Shown: positions 2,818-24,410 of the stretch, piece by piece | Layout of the letters: each line of letters opens with the position of its first letter | How positions within the stretch are numbered: the first letter of the stretch is position 1 | Source of the DNA: a virus | Taxonomy: Duplodnaviria > Caudoviricetes | DNA length: 24,410 nt | Virus record (IMG/VR): IMGVR_UViG_3300009108_000052 | Location: 1 to 24,410 of that record | Strand: one strand, 5' to 3' | Notes under the pieces: model-generated | Told to the model about the DNA's origin: nothing | Seen by the model: the letters and a program-made list of their open reading frames with translations, nothing else | Databases searched by the model: none | Program-made: the position numbers and the translations under genes

Positions 2818-3100
2818 GGGGCTGATATTTTACAAGTGGGTTGCCGAGTGCGACCCACGAAAATGCAGTTACTCGAATACCCTTTGTGTAAGGGAGGTAT
2901 AGAAATAAATGCAACATGCTGAATCAACTATGCATTTACCACAGACTAGCAAAATCGGTATCACAATGTGTCGACTGATTGTGATGCTAAGAGTCCTCGG
3001 TAAAAGACGGTTCGTATCCATGATTAATGCCAATAACCTACAATAATATAATGTGAATGCAAATTACATTTATAAATTGTCAATTTGGAAGACACAAATT
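2818..3100 (+). ncRNA. candidate structured ncRNA A
   Basis: No credible ORF; consecutive helices with G.U pairs on + strand (2836-2858, 2957-2988 and others). Confidence 0.45.
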
Positions 3101-3105
3101 TCAAG

Positions 3106-3134
3106 TTGAATAAATGGTTTTAAAAATCTATACT
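3106..3134 (+). promoter_or_regulatory. sigma70-like promoter
   Basis: TTGAAT (3106-3111), 17 bp spacer, TATACT (3129-3134), AT-rich upstream. Confidence 0.65.
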
Positions 3135-3250
3135 GGTCGTTGGAGGACGACCTTAAAAATACTGTCTACTTTGATTTAGAGATTCTTCTCTAAGACAATC
3201 AAGGTAGACTTCCTCCTCTTTAACTTTTGGAGACTAGTTATGAAATAGTC

Positions 3251-3292
3251 AATATATAAAAGTCTACTTTTAGGGGTAGGCTTTTACATATT
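3251..3292 (+). repeat. Divergent variant of the intergenic hairpin repeat
   Basis: AATATATAAAAGTCTAC...GTAGGCTTTTACATATT; keeps the A.C mismatch and TTTTAC, directly before GAGG SD. Confidence 0.55.
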
Positions 3293-3309
3293 AATTATGA
3301 GGTGAAATT

Positions 3310-3555
3310 ATGACTTTTGAAGAATATGTATATGATTTCTATGGTCAAGGTGACGACAGTCTTTACGGTGAAGAATTCTTCCCGTCTACTGGTGGTGTTA
3401 CTATGGCTGAAATCAGACTAGCAACAAAAATCAGAGAGTTAAATTGTGAGTTACCTTTTGATGGTGACAGTCTAGACAGAGAGATTGTCAGAGACATCAT
3501 GATTAATTCTAGAAATCCAGTTGCTGAGGTAGAACACGGCAACAATTTGAAATAA
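3310..3555 (+). CDS. hypothetical phage protein (81 aa)
   Basis: GAGG SD; stop inside R6. Confidence 0.82.
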   Translation: MTFEEYVYDFYGQGDDSLYGEEFFPSTGGVTMAEIRLATKIRELNCELPFDGDSLDREIVRDIMINSRNPVAEVEHGNNLK

Positions 3556-3598
3556 TAAATCAAAGCCCACTGCTGAAGTGGGTTTTTACTTATTATTT
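3550..3598 (+). repeat. Intergenic hairpin repeat R6
   Basis: AAATAATAAATCAAAGCCCACT-GCTGA-AGTGGGTTTTTACTTATTATTT. Confidence 0.95.
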
Positions 3599-3614
3599 AT
3601 AGGAGGAATAAGTT

Positions 3615-4502: not shown

Positions 4503-4697
4503 GTGACTGAGAATGAGTTTTTAAAAAGTTGGCATAGGGCAATAGACCATGCCATGCAAATCGTAGATTCTGAGGATGAACGGTATTATGTAGCAGATAA
4601 TACTGGGTTGGTCATGCTCGATGATGTAGATTTGGAAACAGCGTGTGTATACGCCAATAAGATTGATGGCTGTACTGCGTTTAGAAAAATTAGATAG
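4503..4697 (+). CDS. hypothetical phage protein (64 aa)
   Basis: AAGGAGG SD, GTG start; stop inside R7. Confidence 0.78.
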   Translation: MTENEFLKSWHRAIDHAMQIVDSEDERYYVADNTGLVMLDDVDLETACVYANKIDGCTAFRKIR

Positions 4698-4740
4698 TAA
4701 ATCAAAGCCCATCTACGGATGGGTTTTTACTTATTATTTA
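4691..4740 (+). repeat. Intergenic hairpin repeat R7
   Basis: TAGATAGTAAATCAAAGCCCATC-TACG-GATGGGTTTTTACTTATTATTTA. Confidence 0.95.
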
Positions 4741-4752
4741 TAAGGAGAGTGA

Positions 4753-4932
4753 ATGGTATATAAAGTAGGTGATTTAATTATAGCAAGGGATGATCTCGGC
4801 ATTGTCTACGATACTATCGGAAAAATTGAAAGTATCGATAAGGCTCATAGTGGTGAGAAAGTCTATACTTGTAAGTTTGATGTAGGAACTTTTCTACTTC
4901 AAGAGAAACATTTAAATCCATTTAAGGAGTAA
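4753..4932 (+). CDS. small phage protein (59 aa, YKVGD start, possibly SH3/KOW-like)
   Basis: Not in track; AAGGAG SD, ATG 4753, TAA 4930-4932. Confidence 0.75.
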   Translation: MVYKVGDLIIARDDLGIVYDTIGKIESIDKAHSGEKVYTCKFDVGTFLLQEKHLNPFKE

Positions 4933-4934
4933 AA

Positions 4935-5201
4935 ATGAGTTACTGGGAAGATTTCGAATTCAGACACGATGAGGTTACTTTAAGTACCCTCTTGACTTTT
5001 GCTGAAAAGACTGACTTCGGTTACTGGTTTGAACGAGAGATAGGAACTGAGTGGGGTTGGAATGAGTATGAAGAGAATTTCGACAACGGTGAGTTTGACC
5101 AAACTATGTGTGGTCTCTATTTCTTTGAACTAACACAGAGTGACCTTGAGAAAGTCCAAGAGCGAGAGAACTGGGTTTTGGAACAAAGAAAAAATCAATA
5201 A
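4935..5201 (+). CDS. hypothetical acidic phage protein (88 aa)
   Basis: AAGGAG SD. Confidence 0.82.
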   Translation: MSYWEDFEFRHDEVTLSTLLTFAEKTDFGYWFEREIGTEWGWNEYEENFDNGEFDQTMCGLYFFELTQSDLEKVQERENWVLEQRKNQ

Positions 5202-5202
5202 A

Positions 5203-5243
5203 ATATAGCACATCAGACAGGTGTGTTATATCTTATTTATTTT
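5203..5243 (+). terminator. hairpin with T-rich tail, possible terminator or processing site
   Basis: ATATAGCACATC-AGACA-GGTGTGTTATAT then CTTATTTATTTT. Confidence 0.4.
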
Positions 5244-5260
5244 ATGACATCTAGTACAGG
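5239..5260 (+). promoter_or_regulatory. putative phage RNAP promoter P1
   Basis: ATTTTATGACATCTAGTACAGG; matches 9677-9698 and 13355-13376. Confidence 0.65.
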
Positions 5261-5270
5261 AGGAAACATT

Positions 5271-5540
5271 ATGATTGATGAAACAAAGGTTAGTTATTTA
5301 AAGAATGACAAAGTTAAATTAACTATGTCTATGGAATCTTATATTAGATTGCTTAATGGCTACAATGATTTAAATAGTGCCTTAAGAACAATGATGGAAA
5401 TACAGGATTTATATCTAAGTGACATAAACAAGATAGATAATTTCCAATGGGTCTTATTTAGAGGTTTAGGTTTCAAGAGAGCCAAAGATAGTTGCTACAC
5501 CTATGATGCTGTTCTAAGTAACAGTGGGAGGGCAGAGTGA
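5271..5540 (+). CDS. hypothetical phage protein
   Basis: Track start 5223; ATG 5271 follows AGGAGG. Confidence 0.8.
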   Translation: MIDETKVSYLKNDKVKLTMSMESYIRLLNGYNDLNSALRTMMEIQDLYLSDINKIDNFQWVLFRGLGFKRAKDSCYTYDAVLSNSGRAE

Positions 5541-5722
5541 CTAAGGATAATGCTTATTATGGAAGAGATGATGAAATTTGCCCTAAGTGTAAATCTGATT
5601 TGGAATATATAGCATATGAAGATTGGGAGAATGAAATTTGGCATTGTACTGGTTGCAATGCTGACTTCAGTGTTCATCTTAATTATGTTAGAGATTGGGC
5701 TGATATGGAGGAGATGAAATGA
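5537..5722 (+). CDS. small zinc-ribbon protein
   Basis: CPKC...CTGC; GTGA overlap; GGGAGG SD. Confidence 0.78.
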   Translation: MTKDNAYYGRDDEICPKCKSDLEYIAYEDWENEIWHCTGCNADFSVHLNYVRDWADMEEMK

Positions 5723-6033
5723 TTATTTATGAATTAACTAATAAAGGTGACGACAAAAGTGATTTTTATTTATTTAAAGAATCACATCCCGATTCTGAAT
5801 CAATAGTAGTAGACCTATTCTTTAGCAAATATTATGCGACCAAAGATGAAGCAGTGAAATCAAAACGAGATGGTACAAGAATATTCAAACATGAATTGAA
5901 ACCTCTCTCTAGAGATGATGTTGCAATGATTCTATCTATGAATCATGTAGATGTATTTTATGAAAACGGTTGGAACGAACTTCATGATATTTCATCCTTG
6001 GTGAAAAATACTATTGAATTGGAGGTTTCATGA
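5719..6033 (+). CDS. hypothetical phage protein (104 aa)
   Basis: GGAGGAG SD, ATGA overlap. Confidence 0.8.
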   Translation: MIIYELTNKGDDKSDFYLFKESHPDSESIVVDLFFSKYYATKDEAVKSKRDGTRIFKHELKPLSRDDVAMILSMNHVDVFYENGWNELHDISSLVKNTIELEVS

Positions 6034-6266
6034 GGACAGATGATATAAGAGAAATGTTTAATAATATATGTTATCGGACTTTCGATAGAGATTGTTCAGT
6101 CCAAATGGACTCTTTTAAAATGTTGGTAAATAGACTTGATAGTTCGGAATCCAATTATGTAATTCAATGGATTCCGACCAATCCTCTGATGCCCCATAAA
6201 AGTCTAGTAAGGGTTTGGTGTAGCCAAACAGATTATGACGAGGGGGTTACTAATGAAGAAGAGTGA
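6030..6266 (+). CDS. hypothetical phage protein (78 aa)
   Basis: GGAGG SD, ATGA overlap. Confidence 0.78.
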   Translation: MRTDDIREMFNNICYRTFDRDCSVQMDSFKMLVNRLDSSESNYVIQWIPTNPLMPHKSLVRVWCSQTDYDEGVTNEEE

Positions 6267-6351
6267 TTATTGGGAAATTTTATCAACCCTAGTTGTCTTA
6301 ATTTTCCTCATTTGGCTACTTGTATATGTAGTAGATTATTTAATTGTTTAA
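6253..6351 (+). CDS. small membrane peptide (32 aa)
   Basis: Not in track; GAGGGGG SD; MKKSDYWEILSTLVVLIFLIWLLVYVVDYLIV. Confidence 0.6.
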   Translation: MKKSDYWEILSTLVVLIFLIWLLVYVVDYLIV

Positions 6352-6363
6352 GGAATTAGAGTC

Positions 6364-6651
6364 ATGAAAGTAGAAATATTAAAAAAATATATTGTAGAAG
6401 AGGGAACAGATTGGCACGGCGGTATTTTCGCCAAATATCAGTTCCCTAACGGTTATGGTGCAAGTGTCATTAAGAACAGTGTTAGTTATGGTGGTAAAAG
6501 TGGTTTATATGAATTGGCAGTTCTCAACAAGGATGGCAAAATTATATACGACACACCAATTACTGATGATGTTCTTGGGTACTTGACCCTTTTAGATGTA
6601 ACGAAACATCTGAAAGAAGTAAAAAACTTGGCACCCAAACTCGTATCCTAG
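6364..6651 (+). CDS. conserved phage protein (FPNGYGASV...GLYELAVL...TPITDDVLGYL family)
   Basis: AAGGA SD; motif widespread in phage small proteins. Confidence 0.85.
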   Translation: MKVEILKKYIVEEGTDWHGGIFAKYQFPNGYGASVIKNSVSYGGKSGLYELAVLNKDGKIIYDTPITDDVLGYLTLLDVTKHLKEVKNLAPKLVS

Positions 6652-6659
6652 GTTCATAT

Positions 6660-7180
6660 GGGGTTCAATAGTAGTCTGTCTTAGTATGGGCTATTATTGA
6701 TTTACGAAGGAAGTTGAAACTGACGAATGGGTTGGAGAACTTCGCCAAGAGTAATGCTATCTACACTAGTGGGCATTACAAAAGGTCTTTACTCGGTCTC
6801 GCACGAGATAAATAGTAAAGATGACAAGTAGTTGTATACACGACAGTTAACTAATGTACTTCAAGGCTGGGTATCCTTTCCTTTTCACACCATGAGATGA
6901 TTAACAAAAAAGGGGATGCTTGAGGAATATATGAAACAGATAAATGAGGAATGCTAACAAAGAAGAATTCGGTAACCTATGAGTCTATCCGTTAAAATCT
7001 ATAGGCTTTGTTTCACAGCAATTCTCTAGAAAGCATGATTATATTTTTCGAAAATAACTGCCCACCGAATTTAACCGAAGGGGGCAGAGAGAATTTCTCT
7101 GCTGGAGGGTGCAAGACCCTCTTCTTGGTGATATGGGAAGAATTTCCCATAGGGGGGTTCGATTCCCCCCACTTTTTTTT
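6660..7180 (+). ncRNA. candidate large structured ncRNA B (about 500 nt)
   Basis: About 540-nt gap with many helices, long-range pairings 6742-6751/7122-7131 and 6965-6973/7064-7072, and two T-arm-like hairpins. Confidence 0.55.
7152..7180 (+). terminator. intrinsic terminator-like hairpin
   Basis: GGGGGG-TTCGATT-CCCCCC-AC-T8. Confidence 0.6.
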
Positions 7181-7194
7181 AAGAGGAGATATTA

Positions 7195-7509
7195 ATGGCA
7201 AAAGATAAAAGTTACAAGATACACGGAACCACTGTGGACTCCAGTGTTGATATGCCCGATTCAATGGATGTCTATGATAGATATGGAGATTGGGTGGATA
7301 ATGTTCTAGTTGAGGAGGTGGATGGTCACCATAGTGCTGATGCTTACAAAGAGATGGCACTTGAGGAACAATTGGAAGAAATATATGAGACCGTAGTGGG
7401 TGACAGTGGGAGAGATAGGTTTTCCCACGGTGAACTCATTCAAGTTTTAAAAGACCTATATGATGATTCGCAAGTTTTACAAAATATTAATGACTATATG
7501 AGTAAATGA
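7195..7509 (+). CDS. hypothetical acidic phage protein (104 aa)
   Basis: GAGGAG SD. Confidence 0.82.
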   Translation: MAKDKSYKIHGTTVDSSVDMPDSMDVYDRYGDWVDNVLVEEVDGHHSADAYKEMALEEQLEEIYETVVGDSGRDRFSHGELIQVLKDLYDDSQVLQNINDYMSK

Positions 7510-7540
7510 AATGATGGCACAAGAAATGAAGGAATAAATT

Positions 7541-7810
7541 ATGAAAGTAGTAAGGAACAATTGTTATGGCGGTTACGCCTTATCAGAAGAAGCATATAAA
7601 TACTTAGACTTGCCTTGGGATGGCTATGGATTTGAGTTTGAAAACCATAGAGAAAACCCTAGATTGGTAGAAGTGGTTGAAGCATTAGGTAAGAAAGCCA
7701 GTGGTAGATGTGCAAACTTAATAATAGTTGAAATACCTGATGATGCTGAATGGTACATTGATGAATACGATGGTTGGGAAACCGTCAGAGAAAAACATAG
7801 AACATGGTAG
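7541..7810 (+). CDS. conserved phage protein (N.CYGG..LS...VEIPDD..W.I.EYDG.E family)
   Basis: AAGGA SD; recognisable phage family motif. Confidence 0.85.
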   Translation: MKVVRNNCYGGYALSEEAYKYLDLPWDGYGFEFENHRENPRLVEVVEALGKKASGRCANLIIVEIPDDAEWYIDEYDGWETVREKHRTW

Positions 7811-7821
7811 AATAGGAGTAA

Positions 7822-8070
7822 ATGATGGATCAGAAAAAACTGAAAAAATTGGAAGATGTGTACAAACGCAGTCCACAGTATAAATATATTTATTTGGATT
7901 ACGGTGAAGTTATAGAAGAAGTTACTGTTATTGCTAGAGACCGTGCAGAAGCCGATGAGTTGAAAGATGAAGGTCACGGGGAATGGAGAAGACTTCGGGA
8001 GGACTGGAGTGATTCTCGTTTTGATAGAATTGAGGAGATAACCGATGAGGAATATGATGAGAGTATATGA
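7822..8070 (+). CDS. hypothetical phage protein (82 aa)
   Basis: AGGAG SD. Confidence 0.8.
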   Translation: MMDQKKLKKLEDVYKRSPQYKYIYLDYGEVIEEVTVIARDRAEADELKDEGHGEWRRLREDWSDSRFDRIEEITDEEYDESI

Positions 8071-8242
8071 TAAGAAATTTATTATTTATTGCTATGGTGA
8101 ACACTGGCATATAAATTGGTTGAAAAATTCTGATGTAACACTTGAGGAGTTTTTCAAGGAACATGATGTAGAAATCGTTGACACAGATATTGATGGAGAA
8201 GAGATAAATGATATTAATAACTTTGAAAGAGCAGAGCGGTGA
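8057..8242 (+). CDS. hypothetical phage protein
   Basis: Track start 8045; GAGG at 8047-8050 favours ATG 8057. Confidence 0.72.
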   Translation: MRVYDKKFIIYCYGEHWHINWLKNSDVTLEEFFKEHDVEIVDTDIDGEEINDINNFERAER

Positions 8243-8495
8243 ACAGGAGTATTTCTCTTATCACTATATGCGTAGTATGACGACATCTGATTACTACGAT
8301 AATCCTAATAAAACTGAATATGAATTGGATGTGGAAATCATGACCGAACTTGGTTATGATGTCTATGAAGATAACTATGAAGAGGATGTTAGTATGTGGT
8401 GGTTTGATACTCGTCTAGTTGGTATCGATGGGATTCAAAATCTATCTGAGACCAGATTTAAAACATTAATTGAACTGGGGATATTGTATGAATGA
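8208..8495 (+). CDS. hypothetical acidic phage protein (95 aa)
   Basis: GGAG upstream; part of the overlapping gene chain. Confidence 0.75.
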   Translation: MILITLKEQSGEQEYFSYHYMRSMTTSDYYDNPNKTEYELDVEIMTELGYDVYEDNYEEDVSMWWFDTRLVGIDGIQNLSETRFKTLIELGILYE

Positions 8496-8730
8496 TAAAC
8501 ACTTAATAAAACAATTGGACAGAGAGATAGATTCTCTGAGAAGTGCGTTAAGTTATCAAGTTTCTGTCCGTAACCAAATTATTGATTGGTTAGAGGGCGA
8601 GATTGAACATAACGAACCTGTTATAAATGGTGATGAGGTATTAACTGATGGGACTGATGATATTCATGTTGGTCGTTCCGATTGTGCTAAGGCTTTACTT
8701 AGGCAAATCGCAAAATTTGAGGAGTGGTAG
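8488..8730 (+). CDS. hypothetical phage protein, coiled-coil N-terminus
   Basis: Track start 8470; ATG 8488 after GGGGA. Confidence 0.75.
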   Translation: MNDKHLIKQLDREIDSLRSALSYQVSVRNQIIDWLEGEIEHNEPVINGDEVLTDGTDDIHVGRSDCAKALLRQIAKFEEW

Positions 8731-8731
8731 G

Positions 8732-8917
8732 ATGAACATTAAAAATAAGTTAGGTGAAGAACTACTGTCCGATGGTGAAGTATTAGACATTCTTTATGAT
8801 TGGATGGGTAGAGAAACAAGAAATTATACTTTAGAGCATAAAGGTAGAAAACTACTGGCTAGAGAAGTTCTAGAGTTTCTTAGGGAAAATGAACAAGAGG
8901 AGATGTCTAATGAATAA
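8732..8917 (+). CDS. hypothetical phage protein
   Basis: Track start 8648; ATG 8732 after GAGGAG. Confidence 0.75.
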   Translation: MNIKNKLGEELLSDGEVLDILYDWMGRETRNYTLEHKGRKLLAREVLEFLRENEQEEMSNE

Positions 8918-9167
8918 AAAACCTTTTTGGAATAGAATGGTAGATGCTTACTATGAAAATGAGCAGAAGTCAGCAGAAGAATTGGACAAGGTTTGTGGTC
9001 TCTTAGCGTGGTTAAGTGTACACGCTGACGAGGACTGTCCAAGTGAATACAGAACCAAGCACTTTAGAAATGCTTTAGATGATGCAGTGGATTATTTAGA
9101 AAAAAGTGGTTGGTATGAGTTCAATAAAAACAAATGTTTAAGGGAGTCTAAAAATGACAATACCTAA
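8910..9167 (+). CDS. hypothetical phage protein
   Basis: Track start 8889; ATG 8910 after GAGGAG. Confidence 0.75.
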   Translation: MNKKPFWNRMVDAYYENEQKSAEELDKVCGLLAWLSVHADEDCPSEYRTKHFRNALDDAVDYLEKSGWYEFNKNKCLRESKNDNT

Positions 9168-9789
9168 ATTAATTGCAATGGTAGAAAGGATTTGCAGAAG
9201 GACAATCCAAGTTATATTTAAAGATATTGATGTTGAGGTGAATCATAACTATTTAGATCACTACCCGAAAGGGGAAGTTAGTGTCTCTGGTAGTTATGAT
9301 GACAACTCTGGTGAAGTTTGTATAACACTTATCTCTAGTTTTAATGACTCGGAAGTCTTTGATTTTAATGATAAAAGTTATGACTGGTTTAACAGTGAAT
9401 TGGTTAAAGTTTTAAGACACGAAGGAATTCACATTGAGCAAGATTTGAGAAATGATTTCTCACCCAGTCTCCACTCTGACGAGCATACTTACTTTTCCGA
9501 TGATTTGGAAATTGAAGCATATGGAAGAGCAGATGTTCCGTTAGAAGTTAGAGAAAGTTCGGAGGGTAGTTCTAAAACAGTAGAGATGTATATAGATATG
9601 TTCGGAAAAGACAGTGACGAAGTGAGAAAACTTTTACATTTCTACAAGATAGAGACAGGTTTGGATTACCCTTTGAATTATATGACATCTAATACAGAAG
9701 ACCTAACTAAAGCAGAATGTTTTAATGCAATAGTTGAAGGTATGAAAATATTAGGTTGGGATGATGAAAAGGAACATAATGGAAAATAA
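9154..9789 (+). CDS. HExxH zincin-like (putative metallopeptidase) protein
   Basis: LRHEGIHIEQ followed by YFSDDLEIEAYG; GGGAG SD. Confidence 0.65.
   Translation: MTIPKLIAMVERICRRTIQVIFKDIDVEVNHNYLDHYPKGEVSVSGSYDDNSGEVCITLISSFNDSEVFDFNDKSYDWFNSELVKVLRHEGIHIEQDLRNDFSPSLHSDEHTYFSDDLEIEAYGRADVPLEVRESSEGSSKTVEMYIDMFGKDSDEVRKLLHFYKIETGLDYPLNYMTSNTEDLTKAECFNAIVEGMKILGWDDEKEHNGK
9677..9698 (+). promoter_or_regulatory. putative phage RNAP promoter P2 (upstream of clpX and RNAP)
   Basis: ATTATATGACATCTAATACAGA. Confidence 0.6.
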
Positions 9790-11113
9790 AGACTGTATTT
9801 GTGCAATTTGCACAGGAGGTAAGTCAGATAAGGATATATTTAGACTTATTGAGTATTATAAAAAAGTTGTATGTGAGGTTTGTTTGCAGACAGTAGTGGC
9901 ACCTGCCTCACCTAAACTTTTTATCAATTATGTCAATAAAGGAAAAATCCTTTATGAAGATTTAAAGAAAGAACAAGATTACATAGAGTCACTAGATGTG
10001 GTAGATTCTTATTTTGAAGACAATGATGTTGGATATGCTGTTAAACCCGATGGTTCAATTATAAAAGCAAAGGGTGTCAGTGGTAAAGAGATAGAAGAAA
10101 CGACACCAAAGACCCTATTTAATTATCTAGAGGAAAATGCAGTAGGTCAAACAGAGGCAAAGAAAACTTTATCAGTTGCAATGTATAACCATTTTAAAAG
10201 AATTAAATTGAAGAGAGAAGGTATAGAAATTAACAAAAACAACATACTTCTTGTAGGAGGGACAGGTGTTGGTAAAACCTTCATAACTTCATTATTAGCA
10301 AAGAAATTGAATTTGCCATTCGTTGTTGCAGATGCAAACAGTTTAACCCAAGCAGGGTATGTTGGGGGCGATGTAGAGGACATATTGGACTCACTTGTAC
10401 AGAAAGCCAAAGGAAATTTAGATAAGGCACAGTGTGGAGTCGTTATTATTGATGAAATAGACAAGATTTGTTCTAATAAGTCTACAGGAGTTAAAGGAAG
10501 AGATCCGAGTGGTGAGGGTGTACAACAGGCACTTCTAAAATTTATCGAAGGTGGTGAGTTCAGAGTAGGTGCAGGTTATAAGAATGGTGTTAAGAAGAAA
10601 AGTTATATATTTGATACTACAGATGTTCTTTTTATTGTTGCAGGTGCTTTTACTGAAATTGAGGAAATAGTAATTTCAAGAGAAAGAGGTGACAGTATGG
10701 GTTTCCTAAGTGGCAACCAAGACAAATTGAGCAAGGATGAAATATATAGAAAAGTCGCCCACGAGGATTTTGAAAAATTTGGTATAATTCCTGAATTGTT
10801 GAGTAGATTACCAACTAGGGTCTCGTTAAATCCCCTTACTGAATCAAACCTAATAGATATTATGTCGAAAATTAACAACAACTTGGTAAGCCAATACAAG
10901 CATTTATTTGCAGAGGATGGGGTCGAATTTAAAATTACAAAAAGTGCGTTACAAGAAATTGCAAGGAGTTCTATATTAGAAAATACAGGTGCGAGAGGTT
11001 TGCACGGAATATTCGAACACCTTTCTAGAGAAATTATGTTTGAGTCGCCTTCTGACGATTTGATAACTGATTTCACAATAACTAAAGAAGATGTTATTAA
11101 CTTAACTTTATAA
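9779..11113 (+). CDS. clpX: ClpX-like AAA+ unfoldase
   Basis: N-terminal CAIC..CEVC Zn motif, GQTEAKK, Walker A GGTGVGKT, GYVG pore loop, Walker B IIDEIDK, GEGVQQALLK, MGF loop, GARGL; track start 9761, ATG 9779 after AAGGA. Confidence 0.93.
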   Translation: MENKDCICAICTGGKSDKDIFRLIEYYKKVVCEVCLQTVVAPASPKLFINYVNKGKILYEDLKKEQDYIESLDVVDSYFEDNDVGYAVKPDGSIIKAKGVSGKEIEETTPKTLFNYLEENAVGQTEAKKTLSVAMYNHFKRIKLKREGIEINKNNILLVGGTGVGKTFITSLLAKKLNLPFVVADANSLTQAGYVGGDVEDILDSLVQKAKGNLDKAQCGVVIIDEIDKICSNKSTGVKGRDPSGEGVQQALLKFIEGGEFRVGAGYKNGVKKKSYIFDTTDVLFIVAGAFTEIEEIVISRERGDSMGFLSGNQDKLSKDEIYRKVAHEDFEKFGIIPELLSRLPTRVSLNPLTESNLIDIMSKINNNLVSQYKHLFAEDGVEFKITKSALQEIARSSILENTGARGLHGIFEHLSREIMFESPSDDLITDFTITKEDVINLTL

Positions 11114-11126
11114 AAACGGAGGTTTT

Positions 11127-13355
11127 ATGGATAAGAGGGAACTACTATTATTACAAATCTCGTCACAATTAAATCATATGTCCCAAACGATAAGCAAGGG
11201 ACGGCAGTCTGCATTTAAGAAAGTTTTACTCGGTGCAGACAGTGTAAGAACAATAGCAGAAGATATTCTAGATTTTACAATTAGTGCGTTGTCGAAAGGT
11301 ACAGCGTTGACATCGACAGCATCAGCATTGGCTTCTAGAATGAATGTGCATACTCAATTCAATTTAAAATCGGGGACTTCACAGAAAGCAGAGGCTACTA
11401 TGATCTCAGCAGGAGTAGAAGCCTTAGGTTCCTTAGGGTCTCTTGGTTACACACAAGTGGTGACAGAGTCTCAAGGTGTTATGAAATTGAATAGATTAGA
11501 TTTTAAAGATGAGCGAAATTTACTTTTTCGTTATTTTCAAGAAATAAAACAGGTGTCGCCAATCGACTTACCCCTAGAGGAGTACAAGGGTTGGACACAT
11601 CCATACAAGAATGGTGTGCCAATAGTCAAGAAGATGCCACCAGAATTAAGTAAAAAATACCTGTATAAGAGGATGCCAAAAGTATACGATGCTTTGAACT
11701 CTTATGGGTCAACATCATTTACAGTGAATGAGGAGTTGTTGGAAATTGTCAAGGAGTTTGACAAGGACGACCACCCCTATATACCTAAAGCTGTAGATAG
11801 TGAGGAAGTAAGCAAGTCCCTCAAGAGTCTTCTGAGTTTCAAAAGAACATCAGAATTTGTAGGGAGACAAGCAAAGAAGTGGTATCTGGCTAATGTCAGT
11901 CACCAACTCTTAAAGAAAGGTCTAACAGTTGCCCAGATAGACGGTAGAAGTAATACTTACAAGAAGAGAAAAGCCTCTGGATGGATGAAGGATAAATCAT
12001 CAGATGCTTTGGATATAGTAAGAGCATCTTCCAAGAGATATGAATTTGACAGGGTTATGGATATGGCTACTCTAATGATTGATAAGGCTTTTCATTACGA
12101 TTTTCAATTAGACAGCAGAGGTAGATTTTATCCAATTGTTAATTACTTTGAACCTACAGGCTCAGATTTAGCGAAAGGATTATTGATGTTTAATCACGGA
12201 GTGTATTGGACTGAAGAAGTCGAAAGGGCTTTGGCAATACATACAGCAAATTGTGCAGGTGAGGACAAGATATCTATGGATGATAGAGTCCTCTGGACTT
12301 ATGTTTGGATGCCAGAGATACTAGAGGCATCTGAAGACCCTCTGAATTCTAAGTGGTTAAGACAATTCAGTGGCGATAAGAAGACCAAGTTTCAATTAAT
12401 ATCTGCTATCTTAGAGTGGAAGAAGTTGGAAGAGATGGGTAGGGATGACTATGTTTGTCATTTACCTATAGGTCTAGATGCAACCAATTCTGGGCTACAA
12501 ATCTTATCCGCTATGACTAGGGATAGGACAGGTGCTGAAGAGACAAATGTGGTAAACCATCCAAGTAAAGAAATTGGAGACGCATACATGGTTATAGCGA
12601 GATCTGTTCTTGATGGTGGTTTCTCTTATAAGAGTTTTGAAGATTTAGGTGATAAGGCTTGGAGGAAACTTTGCAAAAGACCAACAATGTCTTACTACTA
12701 CGATGCTGGTAGAGGTTGTATACAAGACCAAACCTTCGAAGATAGGCGTGACCACGGTTATGATATATTGTCAGAGATGACATATGATGATTCTGCCTAC
12801 ATAGGTACTGCCATTTTTGATGGTGTTAGGTTGGCATTCCCTAGACAAACACAAGCTAAAGACCTTTTGAAAAGAGGTGTCTGTGTATATCTAGAGAATA
12901 GTGGTAACAAGCCAATGATTACTTGGAAGACAGCCACAGGATTTACTGCTTTCCAGAATTATGCAAAAACTTCTATTAAAAGAGTAAATTGTATGTTTGG
13001 GAGTAGACCTGTGAAATTGAGTTATCAGGTTTTTCTTGATGAGGCTAGAAAGACTGACCATGAGAGGGGCATAAGTGCTAATTTTGTACATTCTCAAGAT
13101 GCATCTCTATTAACTTTAGTTATCTGTAGACTAGCAGAACTCGGTGCAATCAACTTTATGATGATTCATGACCAGTTTTCAGTAAGTGCAGATAACTTAG
13201 AACTACTTCTTAATGTATTTAAGGAGGTTTTTCAAGAGATATTTGAAAAAGACCAGCTTGGATCTACAATAGAAGCTTTTGGTCTTGAAGATGAAATTGA
13301 CTATGGTGATTTACAAATGGATGAAATTTCGGAATCCAAGTATATTATCTCTTAA
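11127..13355 (+). CDS. single-subunit T7-family DNA-directed RNA polymerase
   Basis: DSRGRFY, motif A LDATNSGLQILS, motif B RKLCKRPTMSYYY, ANFVHSQDA, motif C IHDQF; GGAGG SD. Confidence 0.95.
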   Translation: MDKRELLLLQISSQLNHMSQTISKGRQSAFKKVLLGADSVRTIAEDILDFTISALSKGTALTSTASALASRMNVHTQFNLKSGTSQKAEATMISAGVEALGSLGSLGYTQVVTESQGVMKLNRLDFKDERNLLFRYFQEIKQVSPIDLPLEEYKGWTHPYKNGVPIVKKMPPELSKKYLYKRMPKVYDALNSYGSTSFTVNEELLEIVKEFDKDDHPYIPKAVDSEEVSKSLKSLLSFKRTSEFVGRQAKKWYLANVSHQLLKKGLTVAQIDGRSNTYKKRKASGWMKDKSSDALDIVRASSKRYEFDRVMDMATLMIDKAFHYDFQLDSRGRFYPIVNYFEPTGSDLAKGLLMFNHGVYWTEEVERALAIHTANCAGEDKISMDDRVLWTYVWMPEILEASEDPLNSKWLRQFSGDKKTKFQLISAILEWKKLEEMGRDDYVCHLPIGLDATNSGLQILSAMTRDRTGAEETNVVNHPSKEIGDAYMVIARSVLDGGFSYKSFEDLGDKAWRKLCKRPTMSYYYDAGRGCIQDQTFEDRRDHGYDILSEMTYDDSAYIGTAIFDGVRLAFPRQTQAKDLLKRGVCVYLENSGNKPMITWKTATGFTAFQNYAKTSIKRVNCMFGSRPVKLSYQVFLDEARKTDHERGISANFVHSQDASLLTLVICRLAELGAINFMMIHDQFSVSADNLELLLNVFKEVFQEIFEKDQLGSTIEAFGLEDEIDYGDLQMDEISESKYIIS

Positions 13356-13376
13356 TTATATGACATCTTATAGAGG
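13355..13376 (+). promoter_or_regulatory. putative phage RNAP promoter P3 (start of replication cluster)
   Basis: ATTATATGACATCTTATAGAGG immediately after RNAP stop; SP6-like TGACA...TATAG. Confidence 0.7.
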
Positions 13377-23613: not shown

Positions 23614-24410
23614 TTAGCCTCCCATTAATACTTCATTTAAACTACTATAACCTGCTGGGGGTTTTAAATCACCCTCAGTTTTTGTACCCAATGCACCATC
23701 TTTATAAGATTTAATACCTCTAGCTATCTCCCTTTTATTTGGATTAAGCATTCTCTCGTTTACTCTTTCTACGACTTCATTGAATGGTATACCAGTTGCT
23801 TTTGCTACTCCTTCTATCAACTCTTTCCTTAGATTATAACCATTATGCATTTCAATGAATACTTTACCAGCTATCTCTTTAGTCTTTCTAACATCTGGAG
23901 CCATGATAAAGAAAGCATCATGAACTACATATACAGGTACCCCTGCCTCGTTTAGTGCAATAACTAATTTAGTTAAATACCCAGCATCTACCATATGAAC
24001 TGCATTAGGGGATAAAGCTGAAGCCATACTCTTCATAGAGTCAGTTACAAATGGTTCTTCGTGTACCATTTTATTCTCTACTGCCCACACTCCTAAATCC
24101 GCAGAACTAATCCCTTTTCTAATAGCCGCTGGTGTTGATGCCATTCTTATAGCCAATGGATCAGTAGGTGCAATTGGAATTTCACTTGTTAATGTAATGT
24201 CTTTTTTCGCATAAGCTTCTTTCTTTTTCCCACTTTTAGTTAAACCTTTTGATTGTTTAATTTGAGGAAAATCTGGAAGTAAATTTACCTTTACTCTTTC
24301 CCGTGATACTTCAAACTGAGTTGCATATATTGTAAAATCAGTTTGATGACCAGAAGGTGATTTTACTAAAAGTGCTTTTCTAGGAGTACCTGATAATGGT
24401 GCTTCATTGT
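23614..24410 (-). CDS. C-terminal part of a second, divergent T7-family RNA polymerase (5' end outside window; possible virion RNAP)
   Basis: Frame stays open from 23614 to window end; LLVKSPSG, SALSPNAVHMVDA and VYVVHDAF match T7 WVTPDG, SGIAPNFVHSQD and IHDSF. Confidence 0.8.
   Translation of the reverse strand, partial: NEAPLSGTPRKALLVKSPSGHQTDFTIYATQFEVSRERVKVNLLPDFPQIKQSKGLTKSGKKKEAYAKKDITLTSEIPIAPTDPLAIRMASTPAAIRKGISSADLGVWAVENKMVHEEPFVTDSMKSMASALSPNAVHMVDAGYLTKLVIALNEAGVPVYVVHDAFFIMAPDVRKTKEIAGKVFIEMHNGYNLRKELIEGVAKATGIPFNEVVERVNERMLNPNKREIARGIKSYKDGALGTKTEGDLKPPAGYSSLNEVLMGG

Follow-up and report, generated by a model that had tools for sequence, protein, structure and literature searches.

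GOLLD and ROOL, which we take to be the Rfam families RF02032 and RF03087, are large and apparently abundant phage-borne RNAs with multiple helices. GOLLD is often found beside tRNA islands, and ROOL has several pseudoknots supported by covariation. To our knowledge, both have structures but no known job, and none has emerged for decades for the species 1 RNA of phage T4. As regards layout, the available portion of PMC12286853 describes GOLLD as having a conserved 3' domain, a less conserved 5' region, and a variable linker sometimes holding tRNAs. The available portion of PMC9697503 lists RNAC and RNAD as T4 RNAs of unknown function; species 1 RNA (rnaC) is encoded at NC_000866 70908-71046 and comprises 139 nt.

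The linear virus record that holds the element considered here, and which as a whole is referred to as the window, has 24,410 bases and is about 49% complete. Like GOLLD and ROOL, the element is large, phage-borne, multi-helix, and apparently abundant, and it shares with GOLLD, as far as the latter is described in that portion of PMC12286853, a conserved 3' region combined with a variable linker. However, it shows no match to either model at E <= 10 and no supported pseudoknot. Unlike GOLLD, moreover, it is shorter than most members, has no tRNA island in the window, holds protein genes in its linker, and ends in two T-arm units. Its 3' end resembles T4 species 1 RNA, a stable RNA in which a hairpin also directly precedes a 3' T arm in the absence of an anticodon arm (PMC9697503, portion available), but the 139-nt T4 RNA is a single unit, closed by a terminal stem and situated in a tRNA cluster; sequence likeness is confined to the T arm, and the covariance model R1 of the 3' module described below reports nothing there at E <= 1. 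The T arm of the element has 17 of 18 bases in common with the tmRNA of Cellulophaga phage phi14:2, and in both tmRNA and the element an ORF can lie inside the RNA, whereas the acceptor stem, CCA, and conserved tag of tmRNA (RF00023) are lacking and an extra hairpin precedes the T arm. The phi14:2 region was rejected as a relative because the similarity is limited to the T arm of its tmRNA; the tmRNA gene that ARAGORN reports there (L133 4031-4500) is absent from the RefSeq feature table. The same building block also occurs between genes of aquatic phages as uncatalogued single units or gene-end T arms (L007, L008, L012, L100), but in the element the unit is doubled and joined to a 400-nt body and a gene slot. 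The element is closest in layout to GOLLD and in its 3' end to T4 species 1 RNA, and is a member of neither. It is a real structured element, uncatalogued and belonging to no Rfam family, whose 3' module of two T-arm units shows covariation and whose slot takes exchangeable genes.

A removable cassette and its gene slot

The window encodes a T7-type RNA polymerase, a primase/helicase, a family A DNA polymerase, a class II ribonucleotide reductase, and endonucleases I and VII. Polymerase identity to cultured phages is at most about 28% among the best 15 matches listed, and the sequencing runs holding the stretch are marine. The element sits among small genes without known function, upstream of clpX and the polymerase. 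The phage-encoded ClpX (9761-11113) scores above the NCBIfam cut-off, lies directly upstream of the T7-type RNA polymerase gene, and has close relatives on several viral contigs. A gap of about 540 nt had been noticed at the locus, and the distance between the ORF ending at 6651 and that starting at 7195 indeed measures 543 nt. Two ORFs overlapping it, 7008-7208 (+) and 7013-7360 (-), were rejected as genes because an insertion in the closely related locus L123 breaks both.

Copies of the D6 repeat (Table 1) are found before clpX and after the RNA polymerase gene, and the repeat may be a candidate promoter of the phage RNA polymerase. Between the small early genes, about seven copies of a different intergenic repeat of 40-60 nt, composed of an A tract, a hairpin, a T tract, and a ribosome-binding site, are located at 724-797, 1008-1117, 1442-1527, 2025-2110, 2412-2477, 3549-3601, and 4677-4742; these are likely terminator or recombination cassettes. 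A second ORF-free stretch (3047-3309) folds at z -6.0 and has no Rfam match at gathering score. Near the end of the window, a 180-aa ORF (23614-24156, minus strand) resembling the C-terminal part of T7-type RNA polymerase lies on the opposite strand at a flip of GC skew. The last 254 nt (24157-24410) reach z -5.9 when folded, and for L006 7037-7643 the value is z -12.

Table 1. Positions of the cassette, its parts, and neighbouring features in the window
Feature	Position	Strand	Remarks
Three-copy repeat (family D6)	5233-5259, 9671-9697, 13349-13375	+ (5233-5259)	upstream of gene blocks; 5233-5259 is the copy nearest the cassette
Upstream gene, phrog_4074, no known function	6364-6651	+	stop codon inside the cassette
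Removable cassette	6647-7175	+	absent in the relative L004/L011, where the flanking genes abut
15-bp 5' hairpin, likely 5' boundary or protector	6665-6700	+	pair probability 0.98, z -4.6; invariant in 3/3 alleles
Small hairpin ahead of the long-range helix	6720-6735	+	pair probability 0.84; invariant in 3/3 alleles
H1, 5' strand (pairs with 7122-7130)	6743-6751	+	pair probability 0.96; in L123, G6744A preserves the pairing
Two hairpins (6751-6779 and 6785-6822)	6751-6822	+	pair probability 0.95-0.99; 3 one-sided pair-keeping changes
AU-rich multi-helix body (6870-6920, 6921-6931/7040-7050, 6946-7026)	6828-7061	+	4 pair-keeping changes and 1 pair-breaking change
Conserved block shortly before the cargo site	7049-7066	+	18/23 identical to L015 267-288, shuffle P 0.007, block chosen by eye
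Cargo site (gene slot)	7067-7073	+	empty in the window and the X12 contig; 70-aa ORF in L123; 49-aa DUF7230 ORF in L015
Unit 1: GAAU-loop hairpin and T-loop hairpin	7083-7122	+	variant T loop here, canonical in L015; 3 two-sided changes in the hairpin
Unit 2: GAAU-loop hairpin and canonical T arm	7132-7170	+	two-sided changes: 6 in the hairpin, 1 in the T stem
T8 tract	7173-7180	+	with the T arm, an intrinsic-terminator-like site; T6 in L123, no run in L015
Downstream gene, 104 aa, no family	7195-7509	+	L123 has a different N-terminus after the cassette

The cassette is defined by a relative (L004/L011) with flanks about 88-93% identical to those of the window. By BLAST, window positions 6441-6646 correspond to L011 1-206 and 7176-7379 to L011 206-412. 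Since the flanking blocks adjoin in L004/L011, the segment between them was gained or lost as one block. The known examples of the element are three alleles that are nearly identical and a distant homolog, L015; one metagenome scan yielded two loci, the complete L123 and L124, which holds the 5' part. Between L123 and the window, 471 of 497 aligned bases (94.8%) are identical, compared with 86.3% and 90.3% for two upstream genes, a difference for which mosaic exchange could be an alternative cause. Paired bases account for 10 of the 26 substitutions in L123, and nine of these ten keep the pair (6.5 would be expected were these changes placed on paired positions at random, P 0.027, scored on a structure predicted from the window alone), none of them being two-sided. 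Indels between the close alleles remove or lengthen distal hairpins. H1 forms in the L123 allele, whose fold has z -7.0.

The gene slot is filled differently in the two relatives. The L123 ORF has its own ribosome-binding site and lies between window positions 7066 and 7074 within an insertion of 213 nt, leaving both RNA halves intact; H1 survives in the minimum free energy (MFE) fold with a pair-keeping change and spans the inserted gene. Its protein forms five clusters, all at least 75% identical, which belong to no family, and no relative was detected among viral contigs. A contig from run X12 holds L123-like 3' alleles without the ORF. The ORF of L015 (312-461) encodes a basic protein directly before the 3' module; it is unrelated to that of L123 but occupies the equivalent site, between the same two conserved blocks. 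Six of its 19 homologs are named ArfA by JGI, and on this naming the protein may be a putative ribosome-rescue-like factor, although no ArfA model in Pfam or NCBIfam matches it. At the DNA level, L015 312-461 has relatives in Acinetobacter T4-like phages. The cassette occurs in three states, namely absent, present and empty, and present with a gene.

Predicted fold and the twin T-arm module

A folding energy no better than that of shuffled controls had been named in the earlier note as a refuting outcome; the plus strand reaches -156.2 kcal/mol (z -4.09), a stability attained by 0 of 100 shuffles, and the minus strand of the gap has z -3.10. Three parts carry this signal, namely the 5' hairpin, the last 105 nt on the 3' side (z -3.3), and the H1-closed stretch 6743-7131 (z -4.2), whereas the middle alone is at about chance (6828-7061, z 0.1; 6706-7065, z -0.9). 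Low values are common in this genome, as ten sampled 260-nt tiles from its first 5 kb range from z -2.2 to -6.3; therefore, little can be concluded from the folding energy by itself.

Each of the 12 helix strands given in the earlier note is present in the sequence, including the four long-range strands at 6742-6751, 7122-7131, 6965-6973, and 7064-7072. The four local helices and the long-range helix 6742-6751/7122-7131 (H1) were recovered with pair probabilities of 0.86-0.98. In contrast, the second proposed long-range helix, 6965-6973/7064-7072, fails: its pair probability is 0.0 at both positions tested, and it is broken in nature, as the L123 gene interrupts its 3' strand and the X12 contig deletes part of its 5' strand. 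The formation of H1 is weakly shown. No two-sided change occurs in it, a run of ten pairs arises by chance in shuffles at P 0.09, and its partner in L015 is ambiguous among three candidates (P 0.84). The AU-rich body is probably closed by helix 6828-6835/7054-7061, which has a pair probability of only about 0.1 in the window yet is formed in the MFE fold of L123, where T6829C turns a U-G into a C-G pair. The distal hairpin 6794-6808 is optional, being cleanly deleted in L123. A pseudoknot candidate, 6728-6734/7058-7064, contains a single mismatch; in L015, its counterpart depends on an alignment at P 0.38. A 'tRNA with a giant anticodon arm' (acceptor 6706-6714/7171-7179, pair probability 0.84) was rejected, as it needs G-U pairs to the T tract and has no tRNA landmarks.

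The T8 tract reported after the terminal hairpin is likewise present (Table 1). Beyond what the earlier note described, the terminal hairpin is a textbook tRNA T arm (7153-7169, with the canonical 7-nt T loop), and a second T-loop hairpin lies at 7104-7122. The 3' 100 nt consist of two tandem units, each comprising a GAAU-loop hairpin followed by a tRNA-type T arm. The covariance model R1, built from 7081-7178 and searched against 853 kb from 100 sources, finds L015 478-575 with 39.3 bits (E 3e-6). With the same model, genuine tRNA T arms from L024 stay at or below 10.8 bits, so the L015 match is more than a T arm alone. The phage contig L015 encodes a ClpX of 57% identity and carries the module at a similar distance upstream of that gene. 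Two-sided changes between the window and L015 affect 10 of 29 pairs in an alignment to one distant sequence that was fitted to the model, a number reached in 0 of 500 shuffles, while slid controls gave 0-3; the same four hairpins appear when L015 is folded without constraints. Covariation in homologs, a check proposed at the outset, is accordingly found in the 3' module but not in H1.

The 5' body has no demonstrable distant homolog. L015 is missed by model R2, built from the 5' 171 nt, even when the filters are switched off; alignment of the entire 5' part to L015 gives P 0.29, and hand-picked blocks give P 0.007-0.38. On whole records, R1 matched 2 of 32 (a duplicate of this genome and the record of L015) and 0 of 32 in another set; this search is deemed strict at its first pass because it missed the 24-bit match in L100, and L039-L086 were covered at loci only. 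L100 (E 0.008), L056 (E 0.06), and L007/L008 (E 0.57) were rejected as R1 members, only a T arm or one unit being common to them. Single hairpin-plus-T-arm units without an anticodon arm stand between genes at L007 1130-1175, L008 1765-1810, and L012 160-205, and a T-arm hairpin at a gene end, also without an anticodon arm, is located at L100 2936-2981. L056 5950-6100 is a structured element comprising a T-loop hairpin and a terminator, which closes off a tRNA array and goes uncalled by ARAGORN. At its 5' side, L015 carries a type II hammerhead (2-70, E 0.0019, below gathering score) with a complete core and two 7-bp stems; its stem II is very short, and a pseudoknot with loop I is likely. No intact hammerhead was found by descriptor in window 6401-7300 or in L123.

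RNA contigs and searches against known families

Out of 20 listed runs, eight were examined. The RNA contigs of X4 and X5 (study P1, from which the DNA may also originate) and of X9 (P4) fall, within 4800-9200, only at 6629-7048, with a depth of 16-32, and are identical to the window or differ by one change; X9 holds in addition a 38-nt piece, under 90% identical, at 6362-6399. DNA run X2 covers 28 of 30 bins of the same region. Run X19 contributes two 151-nt pieces, one extending 80 nt into the upstream gene. Runs X3 and X4 share the same 373-nt contig at the same depth, which was counted once, and X3 is flagged as probably DNA. RNA contigs over 7049-7178, which includes the 3' module, were found in none of the runs examined, and this was not taken as proof of a transcript end. 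As the runs were chosen for holding the stretch, and contigs give neither strand nor ends, these data hint weakly at an abundant RNA, with transcription of the 5' 400 nt far exceeding that of the neighbouring sequence. A transcript, proposed as a check in the earlier note, is weakly indicated over the 5' 400 nt and not over the 3' module.

Membership in GOLLD or ROOL, which had been entertained, was not borne out, since neither model matches the window or L123 at E <= 10. The same negative result holds for tmRNA, RNase P, and introns in the window and in L123. At gathering scores, there is no Rfam match in the whole 24.4-kb window; at E <= 10 there are five, the best being tRNA-Sec at 7086-7177 with 21.8 of the 47 bits needed (E 0.14). 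With default settings, ARAGORN reports 0 tRNA genes and no tmRNA in the 24.4-kb window, the record being about 49% complete. When the element, the L123 allele, and L015 1-590 were compared by blastn with 50,697 phage records, nothing emerged apart from short matches due to chance or to T arms, and the cargo ORF. Sequence patterns retrieved from viral contigs a duplicate of this genome and five unrelated matches, and nothing else, and all four matches of a pattern in genome contigs are due to chance. Additionally, no publication on this RNA was found in the literature searched. In the available portion of PMC10690425, the motifs described are at most 151 nt long; six of its supplementary files contain no match, and three further files may list the 3' module.

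Competing readings and biological meaning

The best reading is a large structured phage RNA of a new class, as the earlier note had suggested, with pairs kept between close alleles, covariation in the 3' module, and RNA contigs confined to the cassette. That it forms one ornate RNA of about 520 nt is less well supported: only the last 100 nt show covariation, and no RNA contig spans both parts. In the form favoured here, to which we give about an even chance, 6647-7175 would encode one stable RNA of about 500 nt, closed by H1 and capped by T arms, that acts as a protective shell around a small-gene slot. Against a single RNA stand the middle that folds at chance, the 5' body without a distant homolog, the 3' module without an RNA contig, and the long-range helix that fails. 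The main alternative is two separate elements flanking the slot, a structured RNA or leader of about 400 nt (6660-7065) and a twin-T-arm terminator or processing signal (7083-7180), which came to touch through gene loss. Such an arrangement, which we consider somewhat unlikely, agrees with RNA contigs that end at or before 7048, with the conservation of only the 3' module and linkers in L015, with the free-standing single units of L007, L008, and L012 and the gene-end hairpin of L100, and with an early region rich in repeated intergenic hairpins. However, both parts are lost together at the empty site of L004/L011, H1 (pair probability 0.96) is retained across the 213-nt insertion with a change that preserves the pair, and the block upstream of the slot is conserved together with the module in L015.

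The remaining explanations assign the element to known kinds of RNA. An RNA-only cage akin to GOLLD or ROOL, with monomers joined by T-loop and kissing-loop contacts and an ORF-capable linker inside, would fit the size, the phage origin, and the succession of 5' domain, variable linker, and conserved 3' domain given for GOLLD in the available portion of PMC12286853. A palindrome of 8 nt in a loop (6764-6771) is invariant in 3/3 alleles, position 6760 taking three bases, but by estimate about 2-3 such palindromes per 520 nt are expected by chance. With neither model matching, no pseudoknot or kissing pair supported by covariation, and helices freely deleted or lengthened among close alleles, a cage seems distinctly improbable. 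More improbable still would be a tRNA or tmRNA gene in decay that contains insertions and has no present function. Under relaxed settings, ARAGORN scores 7086-7178 at 99.2 of the needed 100, with two acceptor mismatches and an ambiguous anticodon, and the best Rfam match is the tRNA-Sec hit given above. At a lowered threshold it further reports a tmRNA-like resume motif at about 7051-7068. On the other hand, the element contains no tRNA cloverleaf with an acceptor stem and 7-nt anticodon loop, nor the alanine acceptor stem with 3' CCA of tmRNA, since AC and a T run follow the T arm; what would be the anticodon arm corresponds in L015 to a second T arm; and the resume-like motif lies near the 3' end, its tag 'not identified' and its frame different between alleles, with no shared tag. 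Moreover, the cassette is better conserved than the neighbouring genes, and decay is further weakened by the 3' covariation. ORFs in peripheral loops are typical of group I and group II introns, which would suit a catalytic RNA harbouring a loop-borne gene, either a self-splicing intron or a derived RNase P RNA. This is scarcely credible, as no intron family matches at E <= 10, the cassette ends carry no intron signatures, and no spliced joint appears in the RNA contigs, though such contigs do not suffice to prove its absence. For RNase P, RF00010 gives nothing at E <= 10 although it detects 11 of 14 controls, the best match of a profile built on 30 RNase P RNAs of a single phylum has E 1, and the P4 pseudoknot with conserved regions I-V in order is not found in the element. 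The RNase P double T-loop is formed by UG..A and AG..A motifs according to the available portion of PMC3664808, and both occur in the internal loop 6932-6945/7027-7039; compared with that source, however, they stand in reverse order and are short enough for chance, and the idea was dropped.

The favoured reading of one protective shell builds on a cassette present or absent as a block with ORF-free and ORF-carrying alleles, on the twin hairpin-plus-T-arm fold that covariation shows for the 3' 100 nt, and on the weakly shown transcription of the 5' 400 nt far above their neighbours. Transcription would accompany that of the early accessory genes and may begin at the repeat 5233-5259. The RNA would end at the T arm and U tract, and its 5' release may take place near the 15-bp hairpin, the hammerhead of L015 being at the corresponding 5' side. 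The T loops could dock on the neighbouring GAAU loops to form caps resembling the tRNA elbow. If such caps resist exonucleases, the slot gene would be expressed from a long-lived message after decay of host mRNA begins. More speculatively, the empty form might be kept since an anticodon-free tRNA mimic would occupy host proteins that bind or cleave tRNA. A full class of shell and messenger RNAs, in which a self-processed, tRNA-capped chassis with a fixed socket carries swapped small genes, including a ribosome-rescue-like factor, on a decay-proof transcript, appears unlikely.

As the cassette exists naturally in absent, empty, and gene-carrying states, its role is directly testable. If it merely consists of two adjacent elements, the twin-T-arm module would still be an uncatalogued, covarying RNA motif. 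Should it serve as a stabilising chassis, this would account for the anticodon-free T arms scattered through phage accessory regions and would provide a portable mRNA-stabilising part.
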